Of a DNA stretch of 63,740 nt, positions 3,731-63,200 are shown piece by piece. Positions within the stretch are counted from its first letter, which is position 1. The number at the start of each line of letters is the position of its first letter. Origin of the DNA: Moniliella sp. 'wahieum' (taxonomy: Eukaryota); assembly GCA_003971905.1 (NCBI GenBank), contig RSEE01000149.1, positions 62,001 to 125,740 of the forward strand, given 5' to 3'. Below the pieces are notes generated by a model that was not told where the DNA came from, did no database searches, and saw nothing but the letters and a program-made list of their open reading frames with translations. The position numbers were made by a program, and so were the translations under genes.

Positions 3731-6700
3731 GGATTGACGTGGTGAGGCCTCAGCCTGAGGCCTAAGGGTGGCACTGGGATCTCTCCAGCATAGGAGGAAA
3801 AGAACAGTGGGACGATCAATTCCGCCCCCATTCGCGGGCACGTGACGCATGACGTGCGTTTTGTTGAAGCTTGAAGCTTGAAGTTTGAAGCTTGAAGGAG
3901 CTTGAAGCTTCACAAGCTTGACATGCCGCAAACCGTTCTTAGAGTGACCGGTGACTGGTGACCGGTGATCAGGTGATGATGACTCGATGACTGGTGTCGT
4001 CCTCGAGATTATACACCTTTCTCACCGACATGGAACTCAAAACACCTAACGAAGTCCACGTCGGGCGCAGTGGGATGATCTATTAGCGCTGAGGCTCAGC
4101 CCACCACTCCCCGCCTGCGCTAGCGCTCAGCGCGCTGACCAGCCTCTCCGCTTTATCAGCCGCTACACTCGATGACATGTGATAATCATACTCCTGCGTC
4201 CATCCCATACCACTGGGTTAATCTCGATTTGTCTGCCTCATTTTGTGGTTGCTTATACCTCCCTTCTTCACCCCCCCAGCTTCAAGCTTCAAGCTTCATG
4301 CATCATGCAGGCCACAGAAGTTGGGAGTACTGGACGTTGAATTCAGTACTCAGCGAGCTTCACGTCAGGGGAATTACATTTGATCTTCTCCTTGCAATGC
4401 ACCCCATTTTATCGCCCTTAGCATTCTGCTTCCCCCCTTAGAATCCTGCATCCCCCCTTTGGATGTATAAAGAGGAGCTGCTTTTTCTTTGCCCCCTACG
4501 TGAACGAAGCAGCTTCCTCTCTTTCCAATCTCTTTCCACCTCCCGACCGCCCCAACCTCTTCATTCTTTCGTCTCTTCCTCATCTTCATCATCACTGCCG
4601 GACCAATCGGCTCTTTCGACATCGCTCTTTCATATCACCATCGCCTTTTGCTTGCCTTTTGCTTGGCTTTCGTTCGCCTTTCTATACGCCGCCCCAATCC
4701 AGATCAGCTTGCATCCCAGCTTGCATCTTGCTCATTGATATCTTCGGCAACCAACGCTAGTCAACTTCCAGCGCGACCATACACAACAGTGACCGTAAGC
4801 CATGTGAATACGTTTGGTTGAAGTCAAATCCGTTGAACGCTATGAACAATGGACCCGAGCCAGTCAAGTTGAACGGTGAGGACGTTGAGGGTATTGTCTA
4901 CTGACTTTGGCCTGTTGCCTGAAGCTTGAAGCTTGAAGCCTGAAGGCAGATTATTGATGGGGGGAAGAAGGTGGAAGAGGACTGCGGTCTACAAAGAGAC
5001 ATCCGAGCCGGAGCGAGCCACTAGTCACTGATCTCCCTAGGGGCGCTTGAGCCATTTCGGCAGAGAGTAAGCGGCTGCGTCAGGTCGAGCCGCCGCTGAG
5101 GGAGCTCAGCCGCTCAACACCAGGTAGGGCACGACGCTCGCTGAACGAGATGCGGCGATGAGATTGTGCGAGGAACAAAAAGAACGACGGTTTAATACGG
5201 CAAAATCGTCAAACGTACCAAATGATCTCGCTTGGGGGTTGCCATGTCGGCGTGTCAACTGCATGTCAACGGCGGGTGAAGTTGAGACGAGGGGGACACG
5301 CATGGCTGTGTGCGAAGAAGTATGTTTGGTCGGTTCCGGTTAGGCGGGAGAGCTGTGCAGAACGGTCTGTTTCCAGTTGCAGCCACGTATTTGATACCGG
5401 CGACGACAAACGGATTTAAAAAAATGATACGCCTGCGTATATATTTGACGGAGGCGACGACAAATGCAGACGCTGTGATCACCCATGCCAGCTGGGAGCG
5501 CTGTGCTGGCAGCATATGATGCGTGACATGTGCATGTGAGGGGCAGGGCGAGGTCTGAGAACACGTGGCGGCGCCTTTGTGCTTACTGGCCAGGTGCGGC
5601 TGGTTCAGCGTCTACCGCGCTCACACGGTCCAGAGGTCAGCATGACATGCGACATGCGACACATGTGACAGCCGCACGGGAATCTGTACCATACACCACC
5701 CATCACGCATCAGGCCACGCCTGGGGTGCTCTGGGAAGATGCAGCAGTGCAGCAGCGGGCGGCTCAGAGGCAGCTGGCTGGGGCAGCTCGCGGGGTCTGA
5801 GGGGCGCAGGGGCAGTGTGGTGCCGACGGATTTCTTCTTTTTGCCTGGTGCACCACCACTGTCATTCGGTCCATCAAATCCAGGTGCGACGCGTTCGTTC
5901 CCCGACGCCTACACAGGTATTTTGGATGGCTTTCCTTGGCGCGTATGGGGGCTTTTTTCTTCGTCGCCGGATAAGATGGCAGATGCTTTGTCGTTGAACG
6001 GTGACCTCCGTGCCTTGAAGCTTGACCTCCATGGCATTCGGAGTGTAGCTCGGGACACTTTGCATGTGCTTGGTGTAAGACCAGGGACCGATTCTTGTCG
6101 TCTGAGAGGACCTGTACTTACAGCCGGTCTTTGCGCCTTTAGCGAGTAAGGACTAGTTACAGGCGGGAGACTGGGCACATGAAGCCTCAAGCTTAGAACG
6201 CCTCCGTGCCAATGGAGGGGGGGCAGCCCTTTTGGGTTTGACTAGTTGATTGCCTCAAACCTAGGCCGCTCGGATCTTCGGTGGCGGCTGAGATCTGCCT
6301 GTCGAGCCTTTGTGCCTGAGGGGAATGGTTTAACGTTACGCGTTAACCGGAAAACCGGGAGCCAACTCCCGGTTAACGGTCACCGGTCACCGGTCATCTG
6401 ACACATGCATCACACGCGGGGATCAGCCGATGGCTGATCGGCCCCAGGGCAGAGGGGCAGTGCACTGCTGGGTCCCGAAGGATGATTGGCCAGGATCAGC
6501 GATCACTGGTCAAGCTTCACGCTTCAAGTGTTTCTTTCCTCCACACGCAAGCGCCACAGGAGCGCCCCGTTGAAAAAGAGAGGCTACGGAAACGATGTGT
6601 TTCTGATCGGACGGGCATAGGGCCCGTGAGCCTTGGGTCGATGGAACGACACGGCAACAGATAGCTCTCTCGCAGCAGACCGCCCGCATGGCACTATCCC

Positions 6701-6817
6701 ATCCAGCAGCCAACATGGGAGCCAAAAGCCCCCCCGTATATAAAGCTCCCTCCCACCCGCGGTTGCAGCCCGCCTTTTCGCCCCCGCCCCTCCTGTCCGC
6801 TCCATCGCACGCCCACC

Positions 6818-8493
6818 ATGGCTGCCGCTGACGATGCCGTGCGCCCTGCGTCCATCGAGTCCGACCGCACCTCCTCCCCGATGAGGCCTTAAGCAGCTGA
6901 AGGATGAGAAGATTCCTGACCGCATGCCCCAGCCCACCAGCGACAATGCCGCCCTCGACCACGATGGTGAGCGCAGTTGGTCAGTCAGGAGACAGGGACC
7001 GATCGACAAGGAAGAGCAGGCCGACCAAAATGACCCTTTCCTCGTCGACTTTAGTCCTAACGACCGGCCAACCCCAAGAACTGGGCCACCAGCCGCAAGT
7101 GGTTTATCACCATGTTCACCTCGCTCTTGTGCTTCACGGTCGCCATTGGCTCTTCGATGCCCACCGGTGACCTGGACGGCGCAGCTAAGTACTTGCATGT
7201 CTCTAGTGAGGCCATCAACCTGTCGATTACCCTCTTTGTTTGCGGCTTTGGCTTTGGCCCCATGCTCTTTGCTTCGCTGTCGGAGATGATCGGACGGCAA
7301 CCCGTATACCTGCTTTGTGGCTTCCTCTACTTTATCTTCAACATGCAGTGTGCATTGGCCAAGAACATTGCCACCCTCCTGTCGGGGCGAATGATTGCTG
7401 GTCTCGCCGCTTCTGCCCCCATGACCAACGTGGGCGGGTCGTTGTCAGATGTGTGGAGGCCTGAGCAAAAGGGTGTTCCCATGGCCATGTTTTCGTCCGT
7501 AATCTTTGTCGGTCCAGCCGTCGGCCCATTGATCGGTGGCTACATCAAGACGGGCACCAACAGCCCCAAAGCGTGGCAGTACATCTACTGGACTCTGTTC
7601 GCATTTACGGGCATCATCTTCATTATCAGTCTCTTTGCACCTGAGACCTTGGCTCCTGTTATCCTCAAGAAGCGCGCCAAGAAGCTGCGCAAGGACACGG
7701 GAGATGAACGCTATTCGACGGCCAATGAGCGTGTGGGCAAGCGTTCCACTAAGGAGATCGTGCAGACTTCTCTCCTCATCCCTCTACTCATGCTGGTCAG
7801 TGAGCCGATGCTCATCCTCTTCTCGGGCTATCTCTGCCTGGTCTATGGTACGTTTCCCTTTTCTTTCCACGATTGATTTTGTACTGATCCCTTCGCCTCA
7901 GCTCTGCTGTATCTTCTCTTCTTTGCCTTGCCTATCGTCTACGCCGAGGGCCACGGCTTCAACGCCGGTGAGGTGGGTCTCATTTTCCTGGCGCTTGTGG
8001 TCGGAATTGTGCTGGCCAACATGTACGTGTACTTAGTACACGAGCGGTGGTACCGCAACCGTGGGATGGAGCGTAAGAACACGCCAGAGGACCGTCTTCC
8101 CCTGATGATGGTCGGTGCGATCGTCCTGCCGCTGTCGATGTTCATTCTGGCGTGGACCAGCATGCCGCATGTGCACTGGGCTGGGTCGATGATTTCTCTC
8201 ATCCCGATGGGCTTTGCCTTTGTCTGCATTTACATTTCCGCCAACGCGTACATTGTCGATGTCTACCGCGCCAGGCGGCCTCCGCCTTGGCTGCCAAGAC
8301 CTTGGCCCGCTCCCTGTGTGGTGCGTCGGTTCCGTTGTTCAGCAACCAGATGTTCCACAAGATGCACAACCAGTGGGCGTTCTGTCTTATGGCCTTTGTC
8401 TGCTGCGCCATGGCCCCTATTCCTTTCATCTTCTTCCGGATCGGCCCCTCGATCCGTGCTGCGTCTAAGTATGCGTCGTCGGACGACAGCTAA
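6818..8493 (+). CDS. MFS drug:H+ antiporter, DHA1 family; intron 7848-7901; frameshifted
   Basis: D..NPKNW motif, GFGFGPMLFASLSEMIGRQPVY, NVGGSLSDVW, PETLAPVIL, PEDRLP; GTACGT..ACTGAT..CAG intron; TATATAAA at about 6738. Confidence 0.92.
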
Positions 8494-8940
8494 GAGTCAG
8501 TCCATGTGTTGGGCTATCGCTCGACGGTTCTGCTTCCTTGCTGTCATCTCCCCTTTCCGGCGTCACTTGCATCTACCCGCACTCCACCCCTTTTTCTAAG
8601 TCCACCTACCTATGCTTCATCATTCCCTCTTGCATGAGTGCACCATGCCTCCCAGCGATGAAGTCTATCCCGTGCACTCACGGGTTCATCCCGTCTATAT
8701 CCCCCCCCCCCTGCACTGTACCCTATGGTTTCTCTGCATTCATCTTTGTTCCACGCATTATGTCTTCTACGCTTGACTACGGCTTATAACGCCTCTATGT
8801 AGTTGCTTCTTCTTGTGAACGTCGGGCTTACTCACTTATTGGACTTGAGCGTGATCCAGTGCTGCTCTTTACTGGAGTTTGCACGTATCCGTGGTGCTCT
8901 GTTTGCATATGACAGATGGCTGATTCGCAAACGACATGGC

Positions 8941-9054
8941 ATGAACCACGGTACGAACCACGGTATAAGCCACGGTACGAACCACAGTATGAGCCACGGT
9001 ACGAACCACGGTACGACCCATGGTACGAACCACTGTACGAACCACGGTATGAAC
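8941..9054. repeat. 12-bp tandem repeat AYGARCCACGGT, about 9.5 copies
   Basis: atgaaccacggt acgaaccacggt ataagccacggt acgaaccacagt ... Confidence 0.95.
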
Positions 9055-9939
9055 TTGAGTCCTGCTTCTCCCGCCTTTTACGTGTTTCTCAATCAACACG
9101 CCCCCGTCCCACCCCCCTGATTATGTCTGTCAGTCCCGAACCTGACCGTGGGTCTCTCGTCGAGTCTTCTCTTCTCAAATGATTTTCTTCGCCATGCCTT
9201 TCCTCCTGGGTTTCTTGGGGTTGTCGTTTGACCACAGCTATAGCATATAGATACAAAATGACTATTACGCGGTGCCGTGCGATCCTTTGCGCATCATTAT
9301 ACTCGTTCGGTGCAGGACCTGGGGGTGTGAATCCAACTGGTTTTCTTCTGAGTGGGGCGCCTCTCTGTCGAAATCTCATGGGCGAGACCCTCTCTTCAGA
9401 AGACAAGGCTCCGTATATGCCCCGGATCGGGCAAGACTGAAATGCCTGCAGTCCGTGCACCTATAATAGAGGACAGGTTGGGAAGGCGACACAGACAGCA
9501 ACGGCAGCCGGGGGTCAGACGACATTACTAGTTATTCGCCACTTTTGTGCCAGAAAACGCAGGCTTGGGCCCTCCTTCGTCCTCTCCCAGAATCCCTCAA
9601 CAAGATGATAGCCCCCTTGATCTGCCTCTCTGATTCATCGAAGTCCCCGGCCCTGGCCCATCACCAGGCCAAAGGAGACACAAGAGAAGCGTGTGGGCTT
9701 TTGGCCAGGCTCGAAAATTCTCGGCTTCCCCCTTGGGACTATACGTGTGTGCAATGACGTTAATGACGCGTGGCACTATTAGAAGAGGAGTACCGTAGTA
9801 ATGCTGTGGATGCTAATAGTGGTGGCTGAACGGTATGTTACGCATACGAGGTCGGAGCCTGAGGGGCCTGGTGCACGTCGAGCCTCATACCCCCGTCTTA
9901 TAGCATAGATAAGGTTCCAACAGACGTTCATAAAAAAAA

Positions 9940-10024
9940 CTCTCCGACCGGGAATCGAACCCGGGTCTCGTCCGAACGTCCACAGCATGACAGGGACGTG
10001 TCATAGCCACTAAACTATCGGAGA
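9940..10024 (-). tRNA. tRNA-Asp(GTC) with 13-nt intron (9975-9987)
   Basis: Minus strand TCTCCGATAGTTTAGTGG...CGTCC-CT-GTC-A[intron]C-GGACG...GGTTCGATTCCCGGTCGGAGAG, followed by a T8 terminator. Confidence 0.95.
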
Positions 10025-11846
10025 GTACATTTTCTGAAATCATTGATCAATATCACCCTTTTACCACGTTGGAAAACGCTGAATGTGTTTGTCGGTCACT
10101 CAGTTGTCCTTTTAAACCCAGTGGGGAGCAAAACTTGCCATTGGTTACACAACGATGATGTGCTCCCGGCCAAGTTAGCAAGTCGCGTAATAGCAAGAAC
10201 GTTCATCCTCAGTGGTGCACGCTGAATAGCTGGCATTAACCTGCGGGGGAAACAGAAAAGAGCAGGGTGAGCAGGATGCCCCCTTTTCCGTACTTGGTCT
10301 AAGTTTTTGTGGTCCTAGTCTAACAAACGGGAACGGCTCTTAACCGTCATCCACACTCTCCTTATACGTAGCATTAGTACTGACTGGATCTCAGGACAAG
10401 AACGGCTACGCGCTACACCTTCATCACAACTTGAACTTCACTTGATGGTCATCAAGCGCAAAATCTCCGGCCTCTCTCGTACAAAATGTTTTTGTTGAAG
10501 TCTTCTGCACACACTCTTTTCTACCCGTCCGTACCTGCAGCGCTGTTTGATCAAACTGGTATGGACACCTTTAGTAGGCCCGGTTCTTGTTTGTGAGAGC
10601 TGTCTTCGTCTTGCTACACAATAGCCATCTCTGATATCGATCTGACAAAATCAGATCATGCTGCTTCCCCCTGTGCATCCAATTGGCTTTTTTGAGGTGC
10701 GATTTGGGGCCCTCAACTGTTGGAGGGATCTATCAAGCTCCCCAAAAAACTCACAAGTAGCACGATCTCGTGAACGGCGCAGACTGTGGTACAACCAGAG
10801 GCCCATTAGACACGGTTTCTCTGCACAATGGGAGGTGCACCAGGAAAGGTGGGACCCAAGCCATCATATATTGCATCACCAAAGTCTTAGTAGCTTATTA
10901 CCAATAGAAAACAACATCGGCTCGTCCCCCATTAGAGATAGATAGATTCGTAGTGTATCCGACCTTTCTGAGGCTTCTGCAAACGCTTATTCAACGTATG
11001 ATTACCAACGAGTATAGTAGTGAGAAATATATACAACAGGAGCGATGCCTGTCTGCTATACTCTGGTTAACGTCTATATAATACCCACACAATCGGCTTT
11101 TTCCTCTTCTCTTTGCCCCAATTCATGTCTTCCAACAAGAGTTATTTACGACTACTCGCTCTCTTTTGATCCCTGGAGCGCTCTTCGAGAGAAGGTCCAC
11201 CTTTCAATCAGCCCGCTTGCTTTCCTTGTCCATCGAAGCTATCTTCGGGCTTTCACGTCCGGGACCTCTAACAAGCAATCCAACCTATAATGTCAGACGC
11301 TGATGGAACACACACACAAACATATCCAATAGCTGAGCCTATTGTAGCTATACGATTCCTTGACCGCTTTGTTTTTTCTTTGAGATGATGCGGTGCAGGC
11401 TGTCGCCCACAGGAAGCCAGCAACCCACAGTCACTAGAGTACGTGCCCGCATGAACCTGCCCCGGGCGGTGCGATCCCTCCCACCTGGTGAAGGATGTGA
11501 GGAGCGAATTGAGTTGGCAGAACGCAAACACAACCCAATCTTTCTCAAGCAGGTTGTTGCAGAGGAGAACCGTATTGGCCGCAGATCACAGGGGAGAAGC
11601 TTGAGGAAGGGATGGGATCCAGTACATAAGGGTAGCCCAGGCACCAAAAGATTTCAAATTTCCGCTGGCTGCAGCTGGTGAATATTGAATGCGCTCGAAA
11701 TGGCCAGTAGTAGATAGAACGCAGTCCCATTGCACCGAACCGAATTTTTTCCCCTTCGGCAGTGTACAAGCAGTCTATAAAAAAACGATGCCAGCCCGCC
11801 TGCCCGTCGCTCCACCACCACACTACTACCCCACCCAAAACCCACC

Positions 11847-13219
11847 ATGGCTGCACCTCCTGTTGAACTGTTTGCGATGCGCATTGAGCCGGGCGAGCCG
11901 GTTCCCGTTGACACGGAGCGTGACGTGGTGATCACCAACGTGTGCTTTGCTTCGGACGCCCCGGCCAAGGGCACGACGATTCTCAAGTTGCACCATGTCA
12001 AGGTCTCGGACGACTGGGACTCGGACGACGAGATCGACTCGGACGCCGACGACGATGACGAGGAGATGGAGGAGGCGCCTCAAAAGGCCCCTAAAGGCAA
12101 GAAGGGGAAGGCGGCTGAGCCTGAGTCTGAGTCTGAGGACGACGATGACGAAGACGACCTGGAGGGTGAGGTGGAGGAGAAGGAGTATGCTGTCGCCCGT
12201 CTCACCGCCGGCCACACGGAGCAGGTGACGCTCAACCTCCAGATCTCGTCGGAGGAGTTGGTTGCGCTGAGTGTCGCCGGGGCCAAGCAGGCGGTGGACG
12301 TGATTGGCTCGTACCTTGCTCCCCCTCCTGGGTTTGACGAGGAGCCTTCGTCGGATGAGGAGATCACCTCGGATGAGGACAGCGAGGATGAGGGTGAGCT
12401 TTCTTCCGGAGACGACGACGACGACGAAGAGGTGGAGGAGGAGGAGGAGGATCTGGGGTCGATCCTCGAAGAGTTTTCCGACGCGGACAACGACACTGAC
12501 GCCCTCTCGTTGCGTGCAGACTTGAAGCGCATCCTGGCCGGGGGCGATGTTTCGGATGAGGAGGATGCGTCGGGCCGGATCGAGGAGCTGAAGGAGCCTG
12601 AACCCGCCAAGACGACTGGGAAGCGTGCGCGCGCCCAGGAGGAGGACGGGGATGTGACCCACCCCGATTTGGCTGCGGCCGCGGAGGCCGAGGGCCTGGA
12701 CCCTAACGCTCTCCAAGGGGCAGAGAAGCGGCTGAACAAGAAGCTGCGTGCGCAGAACGGGGAGGCGGCTGAGGCTCCCCAAGCTCCGGCCGAAAAGAAG
12801 GTTGAGAAGAAGGTTGAGAAGAAGGAGGAGAAGAAGGAGGAGAAGAAGCCCAAGAAGAGCGACAAGCCCGAGGAGGAATCCTCTTCCAAGCGCACGCTCG
12901 AGGGCGGCTTGGTTGTCGAGGACAAGAAGGTTGGCACCGGGCCGGTCGCCAAGAAGGGCGCGCGGATCTCGATGCGCTACGTGGGCAAGCTCACGTCGGG
13001 CAAGATTTTTGACCAGAACACGAGCGGCAAGCCGTTTGCCTTCCGCCTGGGTGCTGGGCAGGTGATCAAGGGCTGGGACGTTGGCGTGGCCGGGATGCGG
13101 GTTGGCGGCGAACGCCGCCTGACCATCCCGCCTGCGATGGGCTACGGCCGCAGCGGCGCGGGGCCGATCCCCGCGAACGCGACGCTGGTGTTGATGTGAA
13201 GCTGGTGGGGACCAAGTAA
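11847..13219 (+). CDS. FPR4: Nucleolar FKBP-type PPIase/histone chaperone (nucleoplasmin-like N-terminus, acidic tracts, C-terminal FKBP domain)
   Basis: [57 protein letters not shown]; the last codons (DVKLVGTK*) need a 1-nt indel. Confidence 0.93.
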
Positions 13220-13289
13220 AAAGGATGCTGCATGTTTGCAAGTGAGACGGTTGCGTGAGGTTGCGTGCGAGATGGACGGACGGACGGAC

Positions 13290-13406
13290 AGAAGACAGAA
13301 GACGAAGACAGAACTAGACAAAGACAGAAGACAAAGACAGAAGACGAAGACAGAAGACGAAGACAGAAGACAGAAGACAAAGACAGAAGACAGAAGACAG
13401 AAGACA
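13290..13406. repeat. (GAAGACA)n-type microsatellite
   Basis: Runs such as gaagacagaagacgaagacagaa..., located 3' of FPR4. Confidence 0.9.
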
Positions 13407-13720
13407 ACCTAACAGACAGACAACCTAACAGGGACAGACACACTGACAGAGAGACAGACACTCTGACAGACATACCTACACACGGAAGAGGCGCTCCTAC
13501 ACACCATCGTCAGTGCTCGGCCCAAACGCATCGTTCGGTGGACCGTCGTTCAGACGTTCAGCATCCCACCCGCCAAAGAAGACCCACGTCACAGTGGCGC
13601 CGTGCCGCGCACGCCATGTGGTGCAAGACGGCGTGCTAGGGTTGCCACGTCGCCCCCCGCCGAATGCATTAATCCTTCCTGGCCCCGCCCGCCGCCTTCT
13701 GCCCAACCTGTTCCATCGCC

Positions 13721-17866: not shown

Positions 17867-17960
17867 GGTCGATTAGCTCAGTTGGTCATTGTATTAATAC
17901 ATCCACTTGTTCGGAGTGTTGGTAATGCCAAGGTCATGAGTTCAAGCCTCATATTGACCA
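17867..17960 (+). tRNA. tRNA-Ile(AAT)-like gene with intron; 3' D-stem strand missing (pseudogene or assembly deletion)
   Basis: Acceptor GGTCGAT/ATTGACC-A, box A TAGCTCAGTTGG, T-arm ATGAG-TTCAAGC-CTCAT, TT-AAT-A loop, T7 terminator. Confidence 0.7.
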
Positions 17961-20891: not shown

Positions 20892-20980
20892 GGGCGGATA
20901 GCTCAGTAGTTGTAGAGCGCACGCTTCGCATTCAAGTTGGCGCCTGTGTGAGGTCTGGGGTTCGATTCCCTATTCGTCCA
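20892..20980 (+). tRNA. tRNA-Ala(CGC) with 14-nt intron (20931-20944)
   Basis: GGGCGGA/TTCGTCC-A acceptor with G3:U70, CACGC-TT-CGC-A[intron]T-GTGTG, GGTTCGATTCC, T7 terminator. Confidence 0.9.
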
Positions 20981-23868: not shown

Positions 23869-25908
23869 GATGAGGGCGGGAGAGAGGCAGCACTTGGCTG
23901 TTGGGGGAGAGGAGGGGAGGAACGAGGGGGGTTGCGGTGCTGGTGAGAATCGGCAAGGAGGTGGGCGATGGCGCCGCAAGTCTTCGTGGTCCGTCATGCG
24001 GATGGGGGCCCGCAGGGATGGAGGAGGCGAATGGGTGTGGTGTGGAGGGGGGGAGGGGCGAAAAGTAGCTCAGTGGGCGTAAGGTGCGGCAGCGGTGCGC
24101 GCAAATGGCGGTACTGGCACATATATATACACAAGGTCAAGATGGCGTGTGGTGTGGGCCCAGCAAGCTGGCGGAGGTGGAGTGTGTCAGATGCGGCGGC
24201 GGGGGTTTGAAATTTGACGCACGGCGGGCGTACGTCGCTTTCCACCCGCCGACCGTCGGAGCGTGATCTGATCTCAGCCGCACACGCCGCCAGCGCCCTG
24301 CGGCTGAGGCCTGATCGATCCCAGATAGCGTGCATTTGAGCCTTGGAGAGCTGGGAGCGGCTGAGTCAAATGCTTACAGGTCACACCTGCCCATACCCGC
24401 TGGATGCTTCGTGTCCAAGCGCGCGACCTTGGCGCTCTTAGATCTTACGCCCCCGCACACTGCCCGCCCGCTGTCCGCACGGAATGGCGTCGAGCGGTTG
24501 AATGTTGAACGGGACGTCGACCTCAGTGAACGGGGTGACCGGCCGGTGACCAGTTGAACGGTTGAACGTTAAACCGTTCCTTGAACATTTGACTCCAGGC
24601 CCCTTTCCCGGGTCTGCCCGCGCTGACGCCGGCTGGGCCCGAGCGCGGAACGATGGCAGAGTGGGCGGCTTTTTACCACCGCCAAAGGTCGCATGTTCGC
24701 AGATGGGGCGGTGATCGAGTGATCGCTCGATGCTCGGATCACCGATCGATCACCGGCGAAGTCACCCTTCCCAGTTGCCCCAGCCTCCGTCGAACCACCC
24801 GCTAGTCTGCCTGCCCAAACCACCGCCAAATTTCTAAGTCCACCGATTCAACCGTCCAGCTGCAGGCCCAGCGGAGAAGGGCAGTGTGCATACCACCAGC
24901 TGATAACTTTGTGCTTGCCTTTCTGGGCCAACGGTATTTTTCCCTTTTTTTCGCCCTTAAATTTGTCCGCTCGGACCTGTTGCAGGGGTAATACGTTGCA
25001 CTCCCTAGGATCGTACTATAGCGATGGTCTTCGGGCACTCATGCGGCGTTAGCGGTGCCGCCGTACCAAAGTGCGATCATCGATATTGCATCGATCAAGA
25101 TCCAATCAACATTCGGATGATCTCTCGATCATCGACGATGCATGGTGCCCGATGCGCGATAGTCGACAAAGGGTGCACAGGCTTGGCACAGTTCCCAATG
25201 TCAACGAATGATGCACAATGGATCTTGCTGATGATGTAATGGCGAGTGCTGGTCTAAGAAATATAGGTCCGGGTAGTGTCCAAGATGCTCTTTTCAGCCA
25301 AGCTTCAAGCTTCAAGCTCCAAGGCTTCAAGCTTCAAGCTTCATTAATCGCTCCTTTCTCGCAGACTCACATGGCTCACTTCAAGCATCATCGTCATCGA
25401 TCGTTCCACATATAATAGGAACGGCGATATCGGTCATCGCTGAATCTCATCTCCGTTTCGGTCTCCTGGTTTCCATCTCAGTCTCTCCTTTGGCGCCCAA
25501 ATGGATCGATACCGACAAAGTTTCCCATCATCTATATCACTAGCTCATCAACGTTCATATTCAATGTCATTAATCTCCGACGTCATTAGTTCAATGCACT
25601 CACTATAGAGCAGAACCCCACAGTAATAGCCTTCAGACTACGCTGACGTAGACGAAGCAACCCAACGAAGAAAAGGGACAGATGCGGTCCAATTTCTCTC
25701 TAAAAAAAGACCTATATTCTATCCCAGAGAGTGCGTGTGGAGAGTTGTGTGATGTGTGTGAGTCATATAATATCCCTTAGCTGGCCGTATGGTCAAACAG
25801 TAACAGCCTAGAATGTACGTGCCTTTTCTTGGTCTTCTGCCCGTTCCCACAGATAGAGTTGTAGAGACCAGGCTGACCAATCCCCACATTTGTTTTCCCA
25901 GTACCTCC

Positions 25909-27224: not shown

Positions 27225-27234
27225 TTGCCCCCTT

Positions 27235-44913: not shown

Positions 44914-47900
44914 TTCCCATCCCTTGCCCCTTGCTCCCTTGCCCCTTGTCCCTTCCTTGCCATCCATTTTTGTTGCTCGCCGGTGTGCGGCTCGGTACCA
45001 GCGGTACGCGGTACCGGGTTCGTTCGCACCGGCTCGGAACCCCTTCTCTCCTTCTCTCCTTGCCCCTTTCCCACGAGTCGCGTGCTACGTGACATGGACA
45101 TGTGATCATATGACATTTTTCATCTGAAAGTACGAGGCACTAGGTACTTGGTTGCGCCTCAGGCCTCATGATCATCGTCCCCTCCCACCGACGGTGGGAG
45201 TGGGACGCACATATATACATCCATCCATCCATCCATCCATACAAGCTATTCTTCTGCATTGAGCATCCCCCCCCCCCTCCTACTGCTATTACTGGCTGGG
45301 CGGATGAGCGGGAAGGTGGTGGTGGCTAACCTAGAAATCTAGGTTTGCAGGTGCGCTGTCCGGGGTTCCAGATTTCTGGTGTAGGTCTCAATAAGGCCTT
45401 AGGACATGGGTGCACGGTAAAGTTCCAGCGACGCACAGGCCAAATCAATGAATTGATTGATTGAATCGCAGGCCTACTGCCCGGTGGGCGATGTGTGACC
45501 ATGTGACCCCCCAATCGTGGATCTAGTACTAGCATCTGCTGCGGAGGCAAAGGCAAAGGCAATGGCAACAGGCCCGTTGCACCGACCCTGCGCCCCAGCC
45601 TGGACTGTGCGCTCGGACCGCCCGGCTCCTTCTCAAAGCGGAGGCGCCGTTGAACATTGCAAAACCCACCCCTGTGGCCTCCAGGTTGCAGTTTCAGTTG
45701 TGCGTTTCTCTCGCCACATGCCCTGGTCGACTGGCTGGCTAGCCGGCTGGGGCGGATAGCGGTTGCCGCTCAGGCTGAGCGCAGACGGAAACGCCGAGCC
45801 AATAGCGTTTGGCATTCCACGTTCCGCCAACCAGCTTCGCCCGACGGGTGTGTGCTTCGGAGAAGCCGTGCGGGGCGGCGCAGATGAAGTTACTCTGTGG
45901 CGGAGGAGGACGCTGCTTGCCACTTGGCTCTGAGCACTTGGCTCTGAGCACTTGGCTCTGGGCGTGTACCGTGTACCGCCACCACGTCTGAGTGAGACGT
46001 GGGTCGCGAAGAGAGACAAGGTGGTACTACCGTGCTACCGTGGCGACGGGACTGATGCAGCGTTGGTGGCATGGCATGGCAAGCTTTCGTTGAGTGGCTC
46101 ACTTTGGTGACCGTACCTCGCTACGAGCCACCACAGATGGAAGGTCCGCTAGCTTCCTTACTCATACGTTCCTCCCCCTCCTCCTCTGCGACGAATGGAG
46201 AGACTGAGGGGGGAAGGCGAGCAGAGCAGTAGAAAGGTATACTCTTCTACCAGTGGGTTTATATCATGTTGCCAGAGCAGAGCCTTTGTCTCTCATATAC
46301 AATCCCTTTGGCCTCCAGCCTTTGTCTCTTCCTCAAGACGAGCCTTTGTCTCCTTCCCCCTTTTTGGCCCCTTTCCCCAGCCTGCTCTTCGTACCTTAAC
46401 AATATGGCCTCGATCGTACGTCCCTGTTCGCATCTCCTATCTTATGCCGCGCCGACCTGGGCGAGGCAAAAGAGAAACGGAAGCTGACTGAACAGGTGCC
46501 TCATTTGCCTCACATCGCACACCGTATTCTCATTAGATCGATTCGGTTTTCTGCCCTTCCTGTGGCACCTCTACCCCTTCTTCGGTATCTGGTGGACCAT
46601 CCCATTGCTCCATTTGCTACAAATGCTTTGGTTCTGCGTAGCCTCTCCACCAGCTCGAAGCCCCCCCCCCCCACTGGTCACTAGTCACCGGTCATTAGCC
46701 ATCCGGAACCAACAGCCCCAAGCCACGGATCTCACAAGTCGCACCGGTCTCAGGGTCTCTCACGAGCTACGTCGGGACGGCATGACAACGTCGGACGACC
46801 GAGATGGGGAGAACAAAGAGGCAACACGCAACAAAAAAAAAGATCCCAAAGGGTCTCTCTCTCAAGTCACTAGTCAGGGTTGCATATGGTTGTACTATAT
46901 CATCTCTCTCTTCCTTGTTACGGATTTTGAAGGGGGTACACGGCTGTTATACCCATTGCACGTTACCATGCCTGTGCTGTTACGCGTACAGTCACCATGC
47001 CCCCCCCCCTCTCCCTCTCCATCCTCATCTGTCCCGCGCGCGATTTGATGCGGTGGATCAATCTGGTGTATTGTTAGCAATGTACTCTAGTGGCCTTTGG
47101 AAGCAAGGCAAAGGAAGAGTGTACGTCTCGTGTATCCATATCAGTTACCGTGATTCAGGCTGCTCGGACCGAACGATGAAACACTAAGTCAGTATATATA
47201 TCAGGTTCGCTCATTCTCAGAGTGTGTGCGGTGTTTGCTCGTACCACTCACACTGGTTCCTACTAACACCCACAGGCCATAGACCAAGATGCGATTCTCC
47301 AGTAGTATCCACTGATCCGTCCCCCATGGACCCAACATGTTCGATCCAATGTGATTGTACGCAAAATATCGGGGCTTGTGGGAAACCCGAAGAGCGTCCA
47401 GAGAGAAGGACGATACGGCTTTGGGGCAAACCCCAATAGTCGGAGACTTTGGCAAGGGCAAGCTGAGATGCACGTGGGCCACGCCACTGGCCAGGGCGAG
47501 CATCACTGCAGATGGAGGCCTATATTCAAAAGATCAGATACTGTTCCACGCCACACAATATATATGCTTCAAAGGAAAGGGATGCCAGACGACACAAAAC
47601 AACCATGTCCTTCAGTAATTCTATAGCAGTCGACGCAGGTTGTGTGTTTGGACTATTACAGGCTCACCGACCCGTGCCAAGCCCGTGCGTATACGGACCA
47701 CTGCCATGTCCATCGTTACACGCATTGTGATCTCGGTCCGCGTCATGTTGGATGAACAGTGAAAAGGTATATAAATCGGCCCGCTCGAGCCTTCTCTCTT
47801 CTCCCCCTACTAATAACACATCTTGTTTTCTGAGATCAGCCATATACGCACTGCACCATCTACTACTATTACATACGATTCCAGTTTCTTGACCGGCATT

Positions 47901-48205
47901 CAAGGTATCTATCCCCGTAGGGGGGAAAGATTAATGATGCAATGATGCCCACACACGCGGTCTTGGTCAGCCTGTGCGGCGTCGGCTTTAATTGGCAGCG
48001 GGCGCGGTCAGCGAGCCTTTTCGCTTGACCTTCAATATTGACTCTCCCGGAGCTCATGGGCTGCTACCTGCCTGAATCTGGACGGGGTCCGACCGGTTTC
48101 TGTGGGTTGAGCACAAAACGAAGAGCCTACAACAGCGAAGATGGTGTGGCGGCGATGATGGTGATGGGTTGGTTTCGTCACTGAGAAAAAGTGGGGTAAA
48201 AAAGT

Positions 48206-48291
48206 GGGGTACGCCCGGGATTGAACCGAGGACCTCTTCCAAGATGAGAATTGTACCCAAAGGAAGCATGATACCACTACACCACGTACCC
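48206..48291 (-). tRNA. tRNA-Pro(TGG) with 14-nt intron
   Basis: GGGTACGTGGTGTAGTGG...CTTCC-TT-TGG-G[intron]T-GGAAG...GGTTCAATCC..CGTACCCC followed by T-runs. Confidence 0.93.
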
Positions 48292-48570
48292 GACTGATGA
48301 GGGCGTTGCAGTAGTGTCTTTAGGCCTGTCTGTAGCACGTCAAATCAGAATGGTCTGTCGGAGGACACTTGCCCTCTTTGTCCTTCTTGTTTGTCTTTTG
48401 CGCCACGTATTCGCAATGCCCCGCATGGATGCGGTGCAGATATCACCCATCGTAGTTCATATACATCACCCATCCCACGTGCCCTTCTCGGCCCCACACG
48501 ACGCCGTGCGCCAAACCCGCAACAACGGGGGCACAACCCCTCAGGCCTCAACCCCCCCACCTTCCACACA

Positions 48571-49155
48571 ATGGCCACCCTCTGGATCATCAACAAAGCC
48601 GGCGGTCTGATCTACACGGGCGGCATGCGCAGCCGCACTTAAGCTCCAACGACGCGCTCGTGTTGGCCGGGACGTTGCATGGCGTGCATGCCATCACGGC
48701 GCGCTTGGCCCCTGCCGAAACCGAAGCAAGCGGGACGAGTGGGGACAAAGCGGATGCGACTTTGACTGCGGCGGCGGCGCGTCGCACGCGCACCCGCACG
48801 CGACCAGTAAGAGCTCCAGCACGAACACGGGCAGGGGCATGAGTATGAGCGGAGAAGGCGGCATGACGCAACTTCAAGCGTCGGACTTTGATTTGACCTT
48901 CCTAGCTCCCTGTACGGGACTGAAATTCGTGCTTCTTACCCCGCGCCAAATGGGCGGGCAGGAGGAACTCGTCGTCCTACCCCCCGTCCAGCCACCGGCA
49001 CCGACGTGTTGCAAGACTGTTACGAAGCGTATGCCGATACCGTGATGCGCAACCCGTTCTATACCCCAGAGATGCCCATTCGCATCGAAGCGTTCGATCA
49101 GAGGATAACGACTATCTTGGGTTGTGACGGGGAAGCGTCAGGCCTCAGGGGTTAA
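48571..49155 (+). CDS. TRS23: TRAPP complex subunit Trs23 (sybindin family); frameshifted
   Basis: LWIINKAGGLIY, SSNDALVLAGTLHGVHAI, TGLKFVLLT, YEAYADTVMRNPFYTPEMPIRIEAFD. Confidence 0.92.
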
Positions 49156-49616
49156 GGGTTAAGGGTTAGGGGTTGTGCGCCGTGGCTGTTGTGGTGCCCC
49201 AATGCGGTTCGGCCCGCCTGTTCTCTTGCCCCTTGGGCCTTGGGCCATCAACGCTGCTCCGTGGTCTGGCACACCCTCTGTCCTACCGAGTCCCACCCCC
49301 TCCTCATTGCAATCCAATCCGTTGGCAAGAGGCCACTACATACATAGGGAGGCAAGACCATCGGGCAGACCTGAGAGAAGGCGATGCTAGCCATTTTCCG
49401 GCACGCCGTCATGCGTCACTGCCAAGAGTACATAAAAGTGGGAGGATGCATCCAAGGGAAAGGGGAGGGAGAAAGAAGGGGATGAAGGGATAGGAAAGAG
49501 GGGGGGTGGCAGAGCCGCGAGCTCCCGGACAGAGACATCGAATGGTGTGTATGTGGGTAGGGGAAGGTGAAGTTGAGGGGGGGGAGGATCAAAAGTGGGA
49601 CAAAATGGATCATGGA

Positions 49617-50825: not shown

Positions 50826-51530
50826 GGCGGGGCGGGTGGGTATACGGGGGGGTGGGGGTGGGCGTGCGGGAGAGGAAAACGCTGCGGCACAAGTAGTGTG
50901 GGCCGGGCGGAAGCGAGGGCTGCTGACCAAGACGGGCGGAGGATGGGCGCTGGGCGCAGGCAGCGGGATGTGCCTGCATGCTGCATGCGCCCGACACCCG
51001 CCGCTCGCCGCGAGGGGGTCCAGTGAGCATCACCCGTCCCACTCGCCCGCAGCACGGCGAAGAGGCGACAGCCACGCGGCACAGCCCCCGTGCCCTCTTC
51101 CTCCCTGCCGCCACGGCTTCGGCCAGCTTCCAGCCGCCCACGGCCGCCCCCACGGCCAGTGTTCCCCTGCCGCTGCCGCCATCGACCATCGACATTGTTT
51201 GTCACCTCCGGCCTCCCGGCCCCGAGTTTCAGCCACCAGAGTGGTCACGTGCGGCAATGCGCTCACATGCCCCCTCGGCGCCGCTGTTTCCGCTACGGAA
51301 CCATGCCGATCCGGGAGCCCGCCAGGGCGTCTGATGCTCTCACCTGTTACCTGTCGCGTGGCATGTCGCGTGGCTCTCCTGCCCTTCCCCATGGCCGCCG
51401 CTCTCATTTCTCCCCTGGCCGGGAACCCTCGTCTACCTTCTCACGATCCCCTGATCTACCAACTCCAACCAGACATTTGCAGTGACTAGTGACGGCAGCA
51501 CATGCCATGACATGCATATACACAGAACAA

Positions 51531-56608
<5,078 letters not shown>

Positions 56609-57990
56609 CTAGGAACTCCAACTAGTCATTACTGCATGGGGCAACCACGCGGCAGCGGGTCGGAGGTAAGCAACACTGGCCCCGTGCCATCCAAGGCGAG
56701 CAGCGCCGAACCGAGAGCTACCGAGTGGGAAGGCAGCGTGCTAAAACTATAATACCCCGTTCGGGCCTCCACACCGCCTCGCAGTCTCGCAGCGTCCCCA
56801 TTCTCGGAGTCTGTATCGCTCAGTGCAACTCACCCTCAGCAGCCTCAGCGCCCCAGCGCCTCAGCCACCTCCCACCATGTCCCAGCTCGTCTGCTGGGGG
56901 CTGGGGCGGGCCGGTCTAATGCATTAATCAGCGGTTACATTGATGCGCCATGTGCTTGTCTACCAGGCTTCAGGAGCTTCAGGGCCTCAGGCTAGCTTCA
57001 GACTTCACGTCACCGGTTACCGTCGGACAGTCTCTGGGTGTGGCAAGAGAAGGACACACACCTCCTGTGGGCCCATCCCGCGTCCCCGCCACTCGCCACT
57101 CGCCACTCGCCTGAGGACTACTCCACGGGCATCAGTGCACCAGCCATCATGCATCTGCATCAGCCCTGGGCGGGCGGAGGCGGGATAGTTTGGGGAGCGA
57201 GAAGGCGATTGAGAGAGTGGAGTGTCCCATGCCACAGGTGCTATCAGCACGCAGCGATCGTCGATGGTCGATGGCCCAGCCAGCGTCCCAGATCTCGAAA
57301 CGCGCGCCTCCGCGGACGGAGATAAGGCCGACCAAGATACGGGGCCACACCAAAGCCGAGACATGCCGCCACGTGGCGTCGGCCGCTTGGAAGGGATGCA
57401 GTTTTCAAACTTCAAGCTTCAAGCGGATCCCGGCAGCGAGGCTCGATCCCACCCCACACGTCGGCAGTGTCTCAGCAACCTCAGCGTCGCCCCGGCCAGT
57501 GGGCGCTGGGCCTCACTAGGTCACTAGAGCGCTTCAAAGCTTCAATATTCAATTCACTCAGATCGCTGATCTCGGAGCTTCAAGCTTCAGCGCCCTCAAC
57601 GTCTCACACCCGCGTTTCACAATTTCACGCCTTACCACATCATGCATCATGCATCACGCGTCCCACAATCCACATGCCGTTGCAAGTTGCAGCACGTGTC
57701 CATATCACGTGCTCTCCATCTCCCGCCCATGCTTTCTCCCACCTGATCATCGCTGTACGCGCCGATCCAGCACTCAGCGGCTAAATGTCCACACGCAAGG
57801 AATGGATGCAGGTATGGTTGAGCAGCAGACAATCTAAAGAATCAAGTGAAAAGGGGGCACAGGAGAACCAATACGCCACTGCGCCAATCCGCCCGTCCGA
57901 TCAAGTACAGGGGCAACCAAGGCAGAACAACGTGGGAGGTTGATTCAGTCCAGCAAGCAACCTCCTCCGTCCAACTCGCGCCTTGTCCAT

Positions 57991-58728: not shown

Positions 58729-59777
58729 GGTATGGAGGGGGCAGACTGCCTAAGGTCGGGTCGGGAGAACGAGAGGTGGGGCGGGGAAGTCGGGCAGGCC
58801 GCCGGCCGAGTCTGCAAGCTCCAAGCTTTGCCCCTCGGGCGTCACGCGTCGCCCTGCTAGGCCGGGTGGGGCGTGTGTGGCCAGTGGTGGGCCTGTGTGG
58901 CCCCGGGCCGAGCATTGCAGGTGTGAAAGACGGCGCCATGAGGATTAGGTAATCGGGTGGATATGGAGCACTACTTACCGGTTGCCGGTTACTGATTGCC
59001 GGTTACATTTAGATTGGTTGCAACTGGCCCAGGCTGGCGCAGTGCGCTTCAGTGGTCACCGGTCACCGCACAGGGGCACTGCAGCCAGCCCTATAATAAG
59101 CGTAATGGTTGCCCCCTTCGTTGCTCCTGTCCTTCGCTCCCCCTTCCGGGTTGCGTCCGCCTTCGCTTGTGCTCCACTCACTACTTCCTTTCCGCTATGG
59201 TCTGATACTCAGATGAGTTTCCTGACGTTTTCCCTCCGCGCGTTGGGGGCCAAAACATAAGCGGAGGAAAAGTACAGTGGATCCAAAAGAAATAAGAAAA
59301 CGAGAAGCCGACGGGAAGATCTCTGCAGGAAAATCACCGTCTGATCCACATAAGACGGGATGAGAACAACTAACTCGAATCGGAAGAGAGAGCAAGGCAA
59401 AGACAAGAATTGAAAAAACGCTCACTCGTTCCCTTAAAGCGAAATTGTTCTATGCACAGCAGATGCGGACTCTTTTTGCACTAAAAAAGAGGAAATGACA
59501 GTACTAGAGTCATAGGTTGGCTGTCTCGTACCCTTTTACAATTTGCTCGTCTCGAGCGTCTCGCTCTTTTTCCCTATTCTTCCGCTTCACGCCAATGTCC
59601 TTTGCTGTTGTTTCTTCCCCACGAACAATTCCGACATTTTTGGCCTAGTCTTGGCTCTTGCCTCCCTCGCCTTCTCAGAGCCTCGACTGTGATAGGTAGT
59701 GTAAGCACTCTCCTCGCCAACAGTCTCTTTTACCCTATCCAGTCTGATAACACAGTCCACAATAAGACACTAAGAGA

Positions 59778-61878: not shown

Positions 61879-63200
61879 GTCGCGCGCGCCCGGCCGTAGC
61901 CAAGGCAAGAGCCGCGGTGGGGGCCAAGACGGACATGGCTCGTTGGTGGGGGGGGCGGGGTGGTGTGCGGAAAGCACACCCTTCCTGTTTTGCGTGCGCC
62001 CCCACGATATACGCCCCCCACAACCGCATACCGAACGAGTGGGGCTTGGCAAGTCAATCATGATAATCAATCTTCTTCAATCTGCAAGCTTCAAGCTTCC
62101 TTCATCGAATTGATCATCAGCATCACGCGCACGGGCGTGTGGGCGGCCAGGACCGCAGTGTGCGCACGGCCTGCTCCTTCACTTCCAAGGGTCTTTCTTT
62201 CCCCTCGTTCGTTCGCGCAGAACAACAGAACGAGGTGTGACGAATGCTGAGTACACTGTGTATGCTGAGCTGGCCGTACTACAGAGGCGCAGAGGGCAGC
62301 GGAGCTAGAGAAGCGCATCAGTGTTCTACGGCCAGGGAACTAGCCTCTCATCTGCGCACTCCGTTCAGTTGAACGTTGAACGTTGGGGCAGTGAGAAACT
62401 CAGCCCAGGCGCCAGGTGGAGCGAGGAGGCTGAGCGCGCTGAGGGCCTGGGGCTCGTTCGTACTCAGCGCCCTCAGGGCCTCAGCCTGTGAATGTCAAAT
62501 GGTGAAGCTTGAAGGTGTTGCCTGTTGCCTGTGATATGTGACGCCAACTGTGAGTCAGCGCAGCCCACGACAGCTCAGCTTGAACGTTCAACTTCTACCC
62601 GTGCACGCCTGAGCTCAGGCCGCTCAGGGCGCTCAGGCTCAGGTCCACTCTTGAAGCGATCCCGCACGGTAACCCTATCTCTTTTTCGGTAGGGTTTTGG
62701 GAGGGTCACCGGTCAGGCCGGTGAGGGATTAAACTGCGTGCTGGGGTAAATATAAATGCACCTCGGTTCTCAAGCTTCAAAAGTTTCAAGTCCCTTGTCC
62801 CGCCCGAAGACCGACCCCGTCCGACGTCGGTCCCATTGCACCCCTTCCTCTCGCCCCAGGTCCCGACTCAGTATCCTGTCTCGTCCAATGATCGAAGTGA
62901 TCGTTGAGCGGACTACCTGTCACCATGTCACCACAGACGGAGACGATCAAAGGGCCTCGACGATCGCCCCCCCGTTTAGAGGTTGCGTGACCCTAGTATG
63001 GAAGAGAAGCAAAGGTATATATGTTGGACACACCTCCGTTTTTCAAAAAAGATTTTTATTTTTATTGCTCTTCTTTCATCAAGAGAGGATGGGATGGATG
63101 AGAACAGAGTCTGAAACGGCATTCTCCTTCGCGGGACACGAAATCGAAACCAGAAGGAAGCCAAAACAAGGAGAAAATCCGAGAAACACGGAGAAAGTGG

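Follow-up and report, generated by a model that had tools for sequence, protein, structure and literature searches.

An apparently undescribed heptameric element with palindromic cores in the intergenic DNA of a putative smut-lineage fungus

The spacers between the genes of a 63.7-kb stretch of DNA from Moniliella sp. 'wahieum' (contig RSEE01000149.1, positions 62,001 to 125,740) carry a sharply defined and apparently undescribed class of intergenic heptameric micro-elements. This stretch, the window, is the single sample on which all counts rest other than those of the external controls. The unit consists of the triplet T[G/C]A, written here as TSA (S standing for G or C), and a core of four nucleotides (nt) that forms a palindrome, and the strict element is the ten-mer TSA-core-TSA. 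In its build the element is more suggestive of a scar left by a mutational process than of a classical protein-binding site. Full-text literature searches, including searches with literal repeat strings and spacing notations, recovered no description of this motif class, and the rule that defines it (T-S-A, period 7, a palindromic tetramer and a directly repeated G/C) is precise enough to allow counting in any genome. An initial annotation of the window had pointed to period-7 arrays of TGA with palindromic cores and had mentioned heptameric repeats of this kind in smut fungi. As regards this mention, the window does come, judging by its sequence, from the smut subphylum, but no such repeat was found in the literature.

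The pattern lies far above chance. Expectations were taken from order-3 Markov simulations (100 for the spacing count), which give 26.3 (standard deviation, sd, 5.6) occurrences of TGA-N4-TGA and TCA-N4-TCA together, against 91 observed in the window (z 11.5). At spacings of 3 and 5 nt TSA recurs 48 and 46 times, respectively, and none of the spacings from 0 to 14 comes near the count at 4. Palindromic cores occupy 52 of these 91 sites, compared with 110 of 1801 (6.1%, the chance value) for the other 31 trinucleotide classes, and the simulations yield 1.7 (sd 1.6) such ten-mers, an enrichment of about 30-fold. Thus, both the excess of palindromic cores, which the initial annotation had noted, and the preference for a spacing of 4 over 3 and 5 persist once composition is corrected for. 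Likewise, every locus that it cited was recovered, either exactly where it had been placed or a few bases away; its estimate of about 12 of the 16 possible palindromes becomes 13 by strict count, with CGCG and TCGA occurring in imperfect frames only and GATC being absent; and the occasional flipped half-sites that it mentioned amount to four forms with a palindromic core (TGA..TCA or TCA..TGA). Together with these four there are 56 ten-mers, which fall into 40 clusters. The same class emerges from tandem runs: the window has 41 perfect runs with period 7 that are 14 nt or longer, of which 16 have T[G/C]A plus a 4-nt palindrome as their unit, a class that makes up 1.4% of heptamers, and one more is symmetric in another way. 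Rotations of TGAAGCT, TGACCGG, TGAACGT and TGACTAG rank with the heptamers that show the strongest over-representation in non-coding DNA. A similar tendency of T-A-A and T-T-A triplets, with a palindromic core in 3 of 12, suggests a T-N-A target. Outside the TSA class there are 23 period-7 loci, several of them with TGG/CCA or CGA in place of TGA; 14 of the 23 contain a 4-nt palindrome (34% expected, P 0.008), and no such excess was seen at other periods. An origin as a by-product of chance, base composition or codon periodicity, whose sole support is that short repeats are generally in excess in eukaryotic spacers, is practically ruled out by the counts of 52 against 1.7 and by the spacing z of 11.5; it also agrees poorly with the chance level of the remaining trinucleotides and with external DNA that is 12-fold poorer in non-AGCT palindromic cores.

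The rule is lineage-specific and not general to DNA or to replication slippage, as is seen from metagenomic, viral and prokaryotic controls. In 121 metagenomic loci seeded on (TGAAGCT)3 and amounting to 543 kb, non-palindromic TSA-N4-TSA has a density of 0.60 per kb, close to the 0.61 per kb of the window, whereas palindromic cores other than AGCT are 12-fold rarer (0.044 vs 0.53 per kb). The variant units of these 121 (TGAAGCT)n arrays are ordinary single substitutions, such as AGCC (7), GGCT (5) and ACCT (5), and comparison of the window with the 121 loci detected no homology save the arrays themselves. Of 124 viral loci with five TGAs in a 7-nt register, 2 have palindromes in all four cores and 112 have none. 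None of 129 prokaryotic five-TGA loci has palindromes in all of its cores or in its majority core, and in 124 every core is non-palindromic. Window-like elements were nevertheless found on three metagenomic contigs (L034, L062 and L100), so that the trait is common to at least a few other organisms. The 3.2-kb contig L034, which is possibly from a relative of the window's organism, carries TCA-GTAC-TCA, two TCA-GGCC and three TCA-AGCT units between positions 1451 and 2822, and has no informative open reading frame. On L062 (positions 1-12021) there are two to three tandem copies of a 5.5-kb segment with 80-90% identity, whose arrays differ in 7- or 14-nt steps.

Anatomy and genomic distribution of the element

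Read in another way, the unit is one G or C plus the 6-nt palindrome A-NNNN-T, so that the lattice is two-fold symmetric save for that one base. The excess requires T-S-A and the palindromic core together: the same palindromic core flanks TSA on both sides in 19 cases against 0.44 expected, while non-palindromic cores on both sides of TSA are at chance, be they direct (6 vs 6.7) or inverted (7 vs 6.7). Symmetric units are in excess at period 7 (17 vs 4.3 expected) and at or below chance at periods 4, 5, 6, 8 and 9 (e.g. 11 vs 27.8 at period 5, 1 vs 3.3 at period 6 and 0 of 7 at period 9). In the same vein, a direct repeat combined with an inverted filler is in excess solely where the two lengths sum to 7, and a hairpin-opening signature was not found at other lengths of duplication or filler. 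Four is the sole length at which palindromic fillers exceed expectation (52 vs 5.7), those of 2 nt (6 vs 5.75), 6 nt (1 vs 0.86), 8 nt (1 vs 0.13) and 10 nt being at chance level. The central G/C, in contrast to the two-fold symmetry of the remainder, is repeated directly in 52 palindromic-core ten-mers and flipped in 4.

The elements had been described as arrays, and period-7 arrays are indeed present, but most loci are minimal elements: 26 of the 42 chains consist of a single TSA-core-TSA. The extension past the ten-mer, summed over both sides, is 0-3 nt in 33 of the 42, and perfect runs are typically 12-13 nt long, i.e. less than two units, a size that neither slippage nor an exact tandem duplication can produce. 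An ordinary slippage microsatellite would have at least two full tandem copies per locus and a unit of unconstrained sequence whose variants stem from single substitutions; in the window just 16 runs of the class reach 14 nt or more and the unit is constrained, whereas the metagenomic arrays behave as such a microsatellite should. Elements end either right after a TSA (offset 0) or at the centre of the would-be next palindrome (offset 2). A match between the outward dinucleotide and the core half was seen at 22 of 42 right ends (2.6 expected) and at 19 of 42 left ends (2.8 expected), and matching falls to background at the third base beyond the end of the element. The extensions of the two sides are independent of each other, with 9 chains having none, 24 having one and 9 having both, and these end statistics fit a filler that is partly templated by the flank. 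At least four arrays (beginning at 4278, 33600, 38379 and 46678) combine different palindromic cores in one 7-nt register. How often a core is used does not correlate with the availability of TSA+2 sites (rho -0.04) or 4-nt palindromes (rho 0.09), and local clustering of identical cores is not significant (P 0.33, 0.31 and 0.11 at 700, 1500 and 3000 nt, respectively). An all-against-all comparison of the 147-nt flanks of the 40 clusters revealed none that were shared beyond the overlaps of neighbours and the arrays themselves.

For the distribution of the elements we used a coding map that is our own approximation by codon-usage log-odds and not an annotation, as the G+C content of third codon positions (GC3) separated the reading frames poorly. 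On this approximate map, non-coding DNA has 50 palindromic-core hits in 35.2 kb (1.42 per kb), coding-like DNA 2 in 21.8 kb (0.09 per kb) and the region of the one long terminal repeat (LTR) retrotransposon none in 6.7 kb. The initial annotation had seen no arrays in coding sequences or in the retrotransposon; the latter has none and coding-like DNA is all but devoid of them, its density being far from that of non-coding DNA. The retrotransposon is a young Ty3-type element on the minus strand (27044-32807) with 188-nt LTRs that are 98% identical, the termini TGTCA...TGACA, a 5-bp target duplication CTCTC and no TSA-palindrome elements inside. The spacers with the three tRNA genes identified by Rfam (9940-10024, 17867-17960 and 20892-20980) also have no TGA-palindrome elements within about 1.5 kb, and an AT-richer stretch at 8.8-11.6 kb is likewise devoid of elements. 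Distances to genes, orientations and promoter-bearing spacers were tallied by hand on the approximate gene map. By this tally the elements lie about 160-1800 nt from gene starts, 16 of them reading as TGA and 11 as TCA in the sense direction, and no preferred distance or orientation relative to gene starts and no clustering of the same core were found. Purely convergent spacer amounts to about 1.7 kb in the window and holds one element, which is too little to separate an association with promoters from plain intergenic location. In the divergent spacer at 3488-6818, an AGCT array (3865) precedes a CCGG array (3945), and on the other strand the mirror image is found, with a CCGG array (6380) ahead of an AGCT array (6510), so that each flanking gene meets the same order of cores; apart from the mirrored arrays, the two sides of this spacer (3865-6528) show no homology. 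The perfect elements are accompanied by a halo of one-off variants, whose excess (about 49) is similar to that of perfect copies (about 50). Of these variants, 30 have one mismatch in a TSA and 19 have one broken core pair, so that they are spread evenly, with about 5.0 for each TSA site and 4.75 for each core site. This halo resembles the outcome of neutral decay with some 0.1 substitutions per site at most, the edges of arrays inflating the count.

Possible origins of the element

The interpretation that we favour, albeit tentatively and with less than even confidence, is that the elements are neutral scars which a duplicative insertion process specific for T-S-A left behind, footprint-like in their anatomy, and which slippage later lengthened. 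A lineage-specific mutational process would act in place at T-S-A triplets. In a single event the triplet would be copied directly, often along with two neighbouring bases, and exactly four self-complementary bases would be left between the copies, adding 7 bp to the site. The regenerated T-S-A could then be hit again, or the short repeat could slip, to give the few longer arrays, and the scars would decay neutrally, persisting only between genes where 7-bp insertions are tolerated. On this interpretation one event would correspond to one unit, the agent might be a two-fold-symmetric nuclease or a transposase-like enzyme, and the scars themselves would be neutral. Several features of the elements point in this direction. 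The total of TSA-N4-TSA is 65 above the Markov expectation, which indicates that elements were created and not converted from chance sites; the direct copying of the central base implies that creation involves duplication; the size of less than two units argues against exact 7-nt tandem duplication or slippage; and the invariant 3+4 geometry, along with the requirement for T-S-A, points to an enzyme with a fixed geometry. The joint need for T-S-A and a palindromic core, the element ends at offset 0 or 2, the even halo of variants, the tendency of T-A-A and T-T-A triplets and the scarcity of all-palindromic cores in prokaryotic and viral arrays are further points in its favour. Formally, the anatomy would be equivalent to the excision footprint of a cut-and-paste transposon, namely a short target-site duplication around a palindromic filler of fixed length. 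Of the features of such a footprint, the direct target duplication and the self-complementary filler, in excess at 4 nt alone, are both present. To our knowledge, the repair of the excision site of a cut-and-paste transposon is the only process that yields such an anatomy by construction.

The scar interpretation can be cast in two versions, each of which fits the data in part. In one of them, a 3-nt duplication is combined with two plus two bases from the ends of a transposon; this accounts for the fixed filler, but it predicts that the two extra bases would rarely be found at the ends of elements, about half of which carry them, and it would require 13 kinds of termini. In the other, a 5-nt duplication is combined with a 2-nt inverted copy of the flanking dinucleotide; this is a better fit to the end statistics and would explain the variable cores without invoking many transposon families. 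We estimate that, at about 10% decay, this second version would leave about 18% of the chains unextended, 77% extended on one side and 5% on both, compared with the observed 21%, 57% and 21%, the last class being inflated, again by estimate, by arrays that continue beyond an imperfect unit.

There are also several points that weigh against the scar interpretation. The filler of a transposon footprint is fixed by the termini of one family, whereas the window has 13 cores with a usage that is unrelated to locality, so that a filler derived from transposon ends would need 13 different terminal dinucleotides. When the 63.7 kb were searched for DNA transposons flanked by TSA or TWA duplications and carrying inverted termini of 12 nt, the arrays alone matched, and no transposase domain other than that of the LTR element was found in the window. 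With respect to the second version, the mirror product, whose filler would derive from the T-S side, shows no enrichment (3 of 69), and we know of no enzyme that gives only the product which this version calls for. Core usage is skewed, with AGCT at 12 loci against 2.5 expected from the available TSA+2 sites, and GATC, TCGA and CGCG at none in this comparison. Nearly every promoter-bearing spacer contains at least one element by the hand tally, which fits a function as well. Finally, on the unrelated contig L062, (TGAAGCT)3 in one paralogous copy is replaced by TGAAG-TG-TGAA in two others, and another array differs by 14 nt between copies and includes non-palindromic variants. The sequences of these copies indicate that a palindromic core was gained by a chance proto-repeat and then expanded, in the manner of an ordinary microsatellite. 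Slippage therefore acts on such arrays, which speaks against one event per unit in the case of long arrays.

Alternatively, the elements might form a selected protein-binding lattice, a proposal that we consider possible though doubtful. An abundant factor or dimeric family would bind T-S-A triplets placed 7 bp apart and need two-fold-symmetric DNA between them, and the elements, born by duplication, would be retained for marking or opening promoters. Such a role would be in keeping with their presence in almost all promoter-containing spacers and absence from coding-like DNA, the LTR element and the three tRNA-gene spacers, and with the mirror order of AGCT and CCGG arrays towards both genes of the spacer at 3488-6818. 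There is also a precedent in the Muta1 transposase, for which a published study describes binding that depends on the palindromic pattern of the terminal motif, second-site changes that restore the palindrome restoring the binding too (PMC5499845). However, T-S-A alone is fixed, with no wider base-specific consensus, and 13 different cores are too many for one factor to read base by base. A symmetric reader also leaves the directly repeated G/C unexplained, as point-mutated sites under such a reader are expected to be about half direct and half flipped, as opposed to the 52 and 4 observed. The spread of distances (about 160-1800 nt) and orientations (16 vs 11) in the hand tally, the failure of identical cores to cluster (P 0.11-0.33), a variant halo that equals the perfect class in size and is even per site, and a convergent spacer of about 1.7 kb that leaves the link to promoters inseparable from intergenic location all speak against it as well. 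Of the two readings offered by the initial annotation, the data lean towards a templated or duplicative mutational process, in view of the direct G/C, the fixed 4-nt filler, the loci of less than two units and the even variants; the abundant-factor reading is less favoured, as the approximate tally showed no preferred distance or orientation, identical cores do not cluster, and the 13 cores are unreadable by a single factor.

Microsatellites favoured by hairpin formation are an unlikely source, under which slipped strands of the near-self-complementary unit would fold like CNG repeats and expand under permissive repair. Six of every seven bases of the lattice do self-pair, the two longest homogeneous arrays form stable folds as single strands (-12.3 kcal/mol, z -3.0; -11.2 kcal/mol, z -4.7), and the paralogous copies on L062 differ by whole units of 7 or 14 nt; yet three of the five folded loci, which are short or composite, do no better than shuffles (z -0.47, -1.6 and +0.07), and most loci are shorter than two units. 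Other symmetric centres or periods, for which no excess was seen (inverted cores around TGA, 7 vs 6.7), the avoidance of palindromic cores by prokaryotic and viral TGA heptamer arrays and the ordinary single substitutions in the 121 metagenomic (TGAAGCT)n arrays are equally at odds with it. As short and composite loci fold poorly and differing cores cannot pair with each other, palindromy is a property of each duplex tetramer, or of its making, and not of folding. Still less credible, and in our view very improbable, is a derivation from the remnant arms or copies of a dispersed mobile element, either a miniature inverted-repeat transposable element or a foldback element, with heptamer arrays as its inverted repeats. 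In the spacer at 3.8-6.5 kb, arrays with the same core do form pairs of opposite orientation, separated by 360-2400 nt, but the 147-nt flanks of the 40 clusters have nothing in common beyond neighbour overlaps and arrays, and the window yielded no inverted termini accompanied by TSA or TWA duplications.

Going further than the scar interpretation as such, we would advance only as a speculative possibility that an undescribed sequence-specific break-and-join or templated-insertion activity writes 7-bp units into the promoter DNA of this smut-lineage fungus. The unit written would comprise a T-S-A duplication and a 4-bp palindrome that is partly templated, in inverted form, from the neighbouring dinucleotide. 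An activity of this kind would constitute an ultra-short and possibly enzyme-borne mutational signature, or a 4-bp 'mobile palindrome', with about 4% of the non-coding T-S-A sites being marked. If the elements are scars, they would provide a readable record of site-specific breakage and repair, or of an unseen transposon family, at about one site per kb of spacer, and would represent a large and so far overlooked source of variation among the promoters of a group to which crop smuts and skin yeasts belong. As binding sites, they would instead define a factor recognising the symmetry of DNA rather than its sequence.

Comparison with known repeats and transposition footprints

None of the nearest known kinds of element has the full rule set. 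The canonical excision footprint of Tc1/mariner transposons consists of TA, two to three end bases from each side and TA. Like the elements of the window, such footprints combine a short direct target duplication with a fixed-length and (nearly) self-complementary filler, and in both the regenerated target may be hit again and scars accumulate in non-coding DNA. However, the Tc1/mariner target is TA, with one filler per transposon family, as against T-S-A and 13 fillers here; moreover, half of the window's element ends carry two further matching bases, and there is no candidate transposon in the window. PIF/Harbinger and IS5-type elements generate 3-bp T-N-A target-site duplications, and this pseudo-symmetric 3-bp target resembles the triplets of the window, inclusive of the tendency of TAA/TTA (3 of 12). 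In contrast, excision of Harbinger-type elements is mostly precise and is not known to leave a 4-nt filler, and no such transposase is present among the window's genes.

CNG triplet repeats are hairpin-prone, their unit being self-complementary around one unpaired central base. This form of self-complementarity is shared by the unit of the window, but in the window a single central triplet and a single period account for the excess, and slippage would need longer loci than most of those present. Heptamer repeats are reportedly found in Xanthomonas and Nostoc. The hairpins of bacterial heptamer repeats share with the window's elements the 7-nt unit, the fixed TGA register and the intergenic location; they form, however, between two opposed arrays and have non-palindromic cores (no palindrome in 124 of 129), whereas the symmetry in the window lies within the unit. 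Tandem repeats in yeast promoters tune expression and are, like the window's elements, short, unstable and situated upstream of genes, but they follow no rule of unit sequence or symmetry. For fungal mitochondria, published studies describe the GC clusters of yeast (GC42), which are small palindromic inserts with a duplicated target AG that lie in spacers and merge into composite arrays (PMC4478555), ultra-short invasive elements in Podospora (PMC7272585) and small mobile palindromes (PMC7218506). The palindromic GC clusters and the Podospora elements are akin to those of the window in being small palindromic inserts with a very short duplicated target and a location in spacers. Nonetheless, the mitochondrial palindromes are 30-40 nt or longer and form hairpins, whereas the window's elements are nuclear and their 4-nt palindrome is unable to fold alone.

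Gene content, individual loci and other repeats of the window

The window is eukaryotic nuclear DNA with about 57% G+C. Its genes encode an MFS transporter, an FKBP/nucleoplasmin protein, KH-domain proteins, a GT90 glycosyltransferase, an SRP40-like protein, an ammonium transporter, a PIP5 kinase, a DnaJ protein, an ABC transporter and a Tim17-family protein, alongside the one Ty3-type LTR retrotransposon and the three Rfam tRNA genes. The best named relatives of the ammonium transporter, with 70-75% identity, are from Violaceomyces, Tilletiaria, Kalmanozyma, Sporisorium and Ustilago, and on sequence grounds the organism is assigned to the Ustilaginomycotina, the smut subphylum, although none of the named proteins is a close match.

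Along the window (strand in brackets), a single TCA-AGCT-TCA lies within a coding-like segment at 1333-1342 (-). The following loci begin directly downstream of a minisatellite at 3472-3729, which has about 10.6 copies of a 20-nt unit with the consensus TGAGCGTGCCGTCAACTTGA, a period that is not a multiple of 3. The flipped form TGA-GGCC-TCA, a perfect 10-nt palindrome with no strand assigned, is found at 3743-3752, followed by a TGA-AGCT array with the cores AGCT, AGCT, AGTT and AGCT and then an interrupted unit ending in TCA (3865-3912, +), a TGA array with the cores CCGG, CTGG and CCGG (3945-3968, +) and TGA-CATG-TGA (4173-4182, +). At 4278-4309 (-) two TCA-AGCT and then two TCA-TGCA units form a composite in a single 7-nt register, and further on there are TCA-GTAC-TCA (4343-4352, -), two TGA-AGCT units followed by an AGCC unit (4920-4939, +) and TGA-AGCT-TGA (6016-6025, +). 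Two TCA-CCGG units (6377-6396, -) are located about 430 nt, and TCA-AGCT-TCA (6510-6519, -) about 300 nt, upstream of the ATG of the MFS gene (6819). TGA-ATAT-TGA (11679-11688, +) is upstream of the FKBP gene. The next group comprises TGA-AATT-TGA (24208-24217, +), TGA-GGCC-TGA succeeded by TCGA-TCC (24305-24314, +), two TCA-AGCT runs with an imperfect unit between them (25299-25343, -) and TCA-ACGT-TCA (25548-25557, -).

Past the retrotransposon lie two TGA-TGCA units (33467-33486, +) and the composite TCA-AGCT-TCA-TATA-TCA (33600-33616, -). TCA-TTAA-TCA (34018-34027, -) belongs to copy 2 of a local tandem duplication at 33780-34100, of about 150 nt and 81% identity, in which a 5-nt indel falls exactly at the TCA site; copy 1 reads TCATTATATCA where the other reads TCATTAATCATT, the direction of change being ambiguous. 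A TGA-GCGC run follows at 34952-34969 (+), and upstream of the SRP40-like gene is the composite TGA-TTAA-TGA-CGCG-CGA-CGCG-TGA-CGCA-TGA-TGCA-TGA (38379-38416, +). TCA-GGCC-TCA recurs at 41338-41347, 45159-45168, 48541-48550 and 49138-49147 (all -), the last of these adjoining a (GGGTTAA)3 run (49149-49168) that is telomere-repeat-like and has a 7-nt unit with the palindrome TTAA inside. Interspersed with these are TGA-ACGT-TGA (41730-41739, +), two copies of TGTGACA, i.e. TGA-CATG-TGA (41930-41943, +), the composite TCA-CTAG-TCA-CCGG-TCA (46678-46694, -), TCA-CTAG-TCA (46867-46876, -) and the flipped form TCA-ATAT-TGA (48032-48041, no strand). TGA-CTAG-TGA is at 51483-51492 (+). Towards the end of the window there are a TCA-AGCT-TCA run (57410-57424, -), TCA-ATAT-TCA with TCA-AGCT-TCA 38 nt further on (57542-57589, -), two TCA-TGCA units (57638-57656, -), two copies of GGTCACC, i.e. 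TCA-CCGG-TCA (59054-59068, -), a period-7 run of CAAGCTT-C that belongs to the AGCT class (62085-62099, -), a TGA-ACGT run (62368-62385, +), TGA-AGCT-TGA (62503-62512, +), the flipped form TGA-ACGT-TCA (62581-62590, no strand), TCA-CCGG-TCA (62706-62715, -) and, about 20 nt after a TATA-like box, TCA-AGCT-TCA (62770-62779, -).

With regard to the remaining features, the Rfam scan of the window identified the three tRNA genes and nothing else, and ARAGORN recovered the first of these (9940-10024) along with an extra candidate at 48206-48291. An in-frame-looking 18-nt repeat is present at 30615-30793 in the Ty3-type retrotransposon. The AT-richer, element-free stretch past the MFS gene contains nine copies of the 12-nt unit GAACCACGGTAC (8943-9054), and long imperfect, purine-rich (GACAGAA)n and (GACA)n arrays, the former being a heptamer without a palindrome, are situated between the FKBP and KH-domain genes (13287-13483). 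Imperfect 8-9-nt repeats rich in CTCAG/CTGAG, such as four copies of CCTCAGCG and variants of GCTCAGG, occur at 56834-56865, 56967-57001 and 62425-62640; these amount to T-S-A triplets with complementary neighbours at other spacings.

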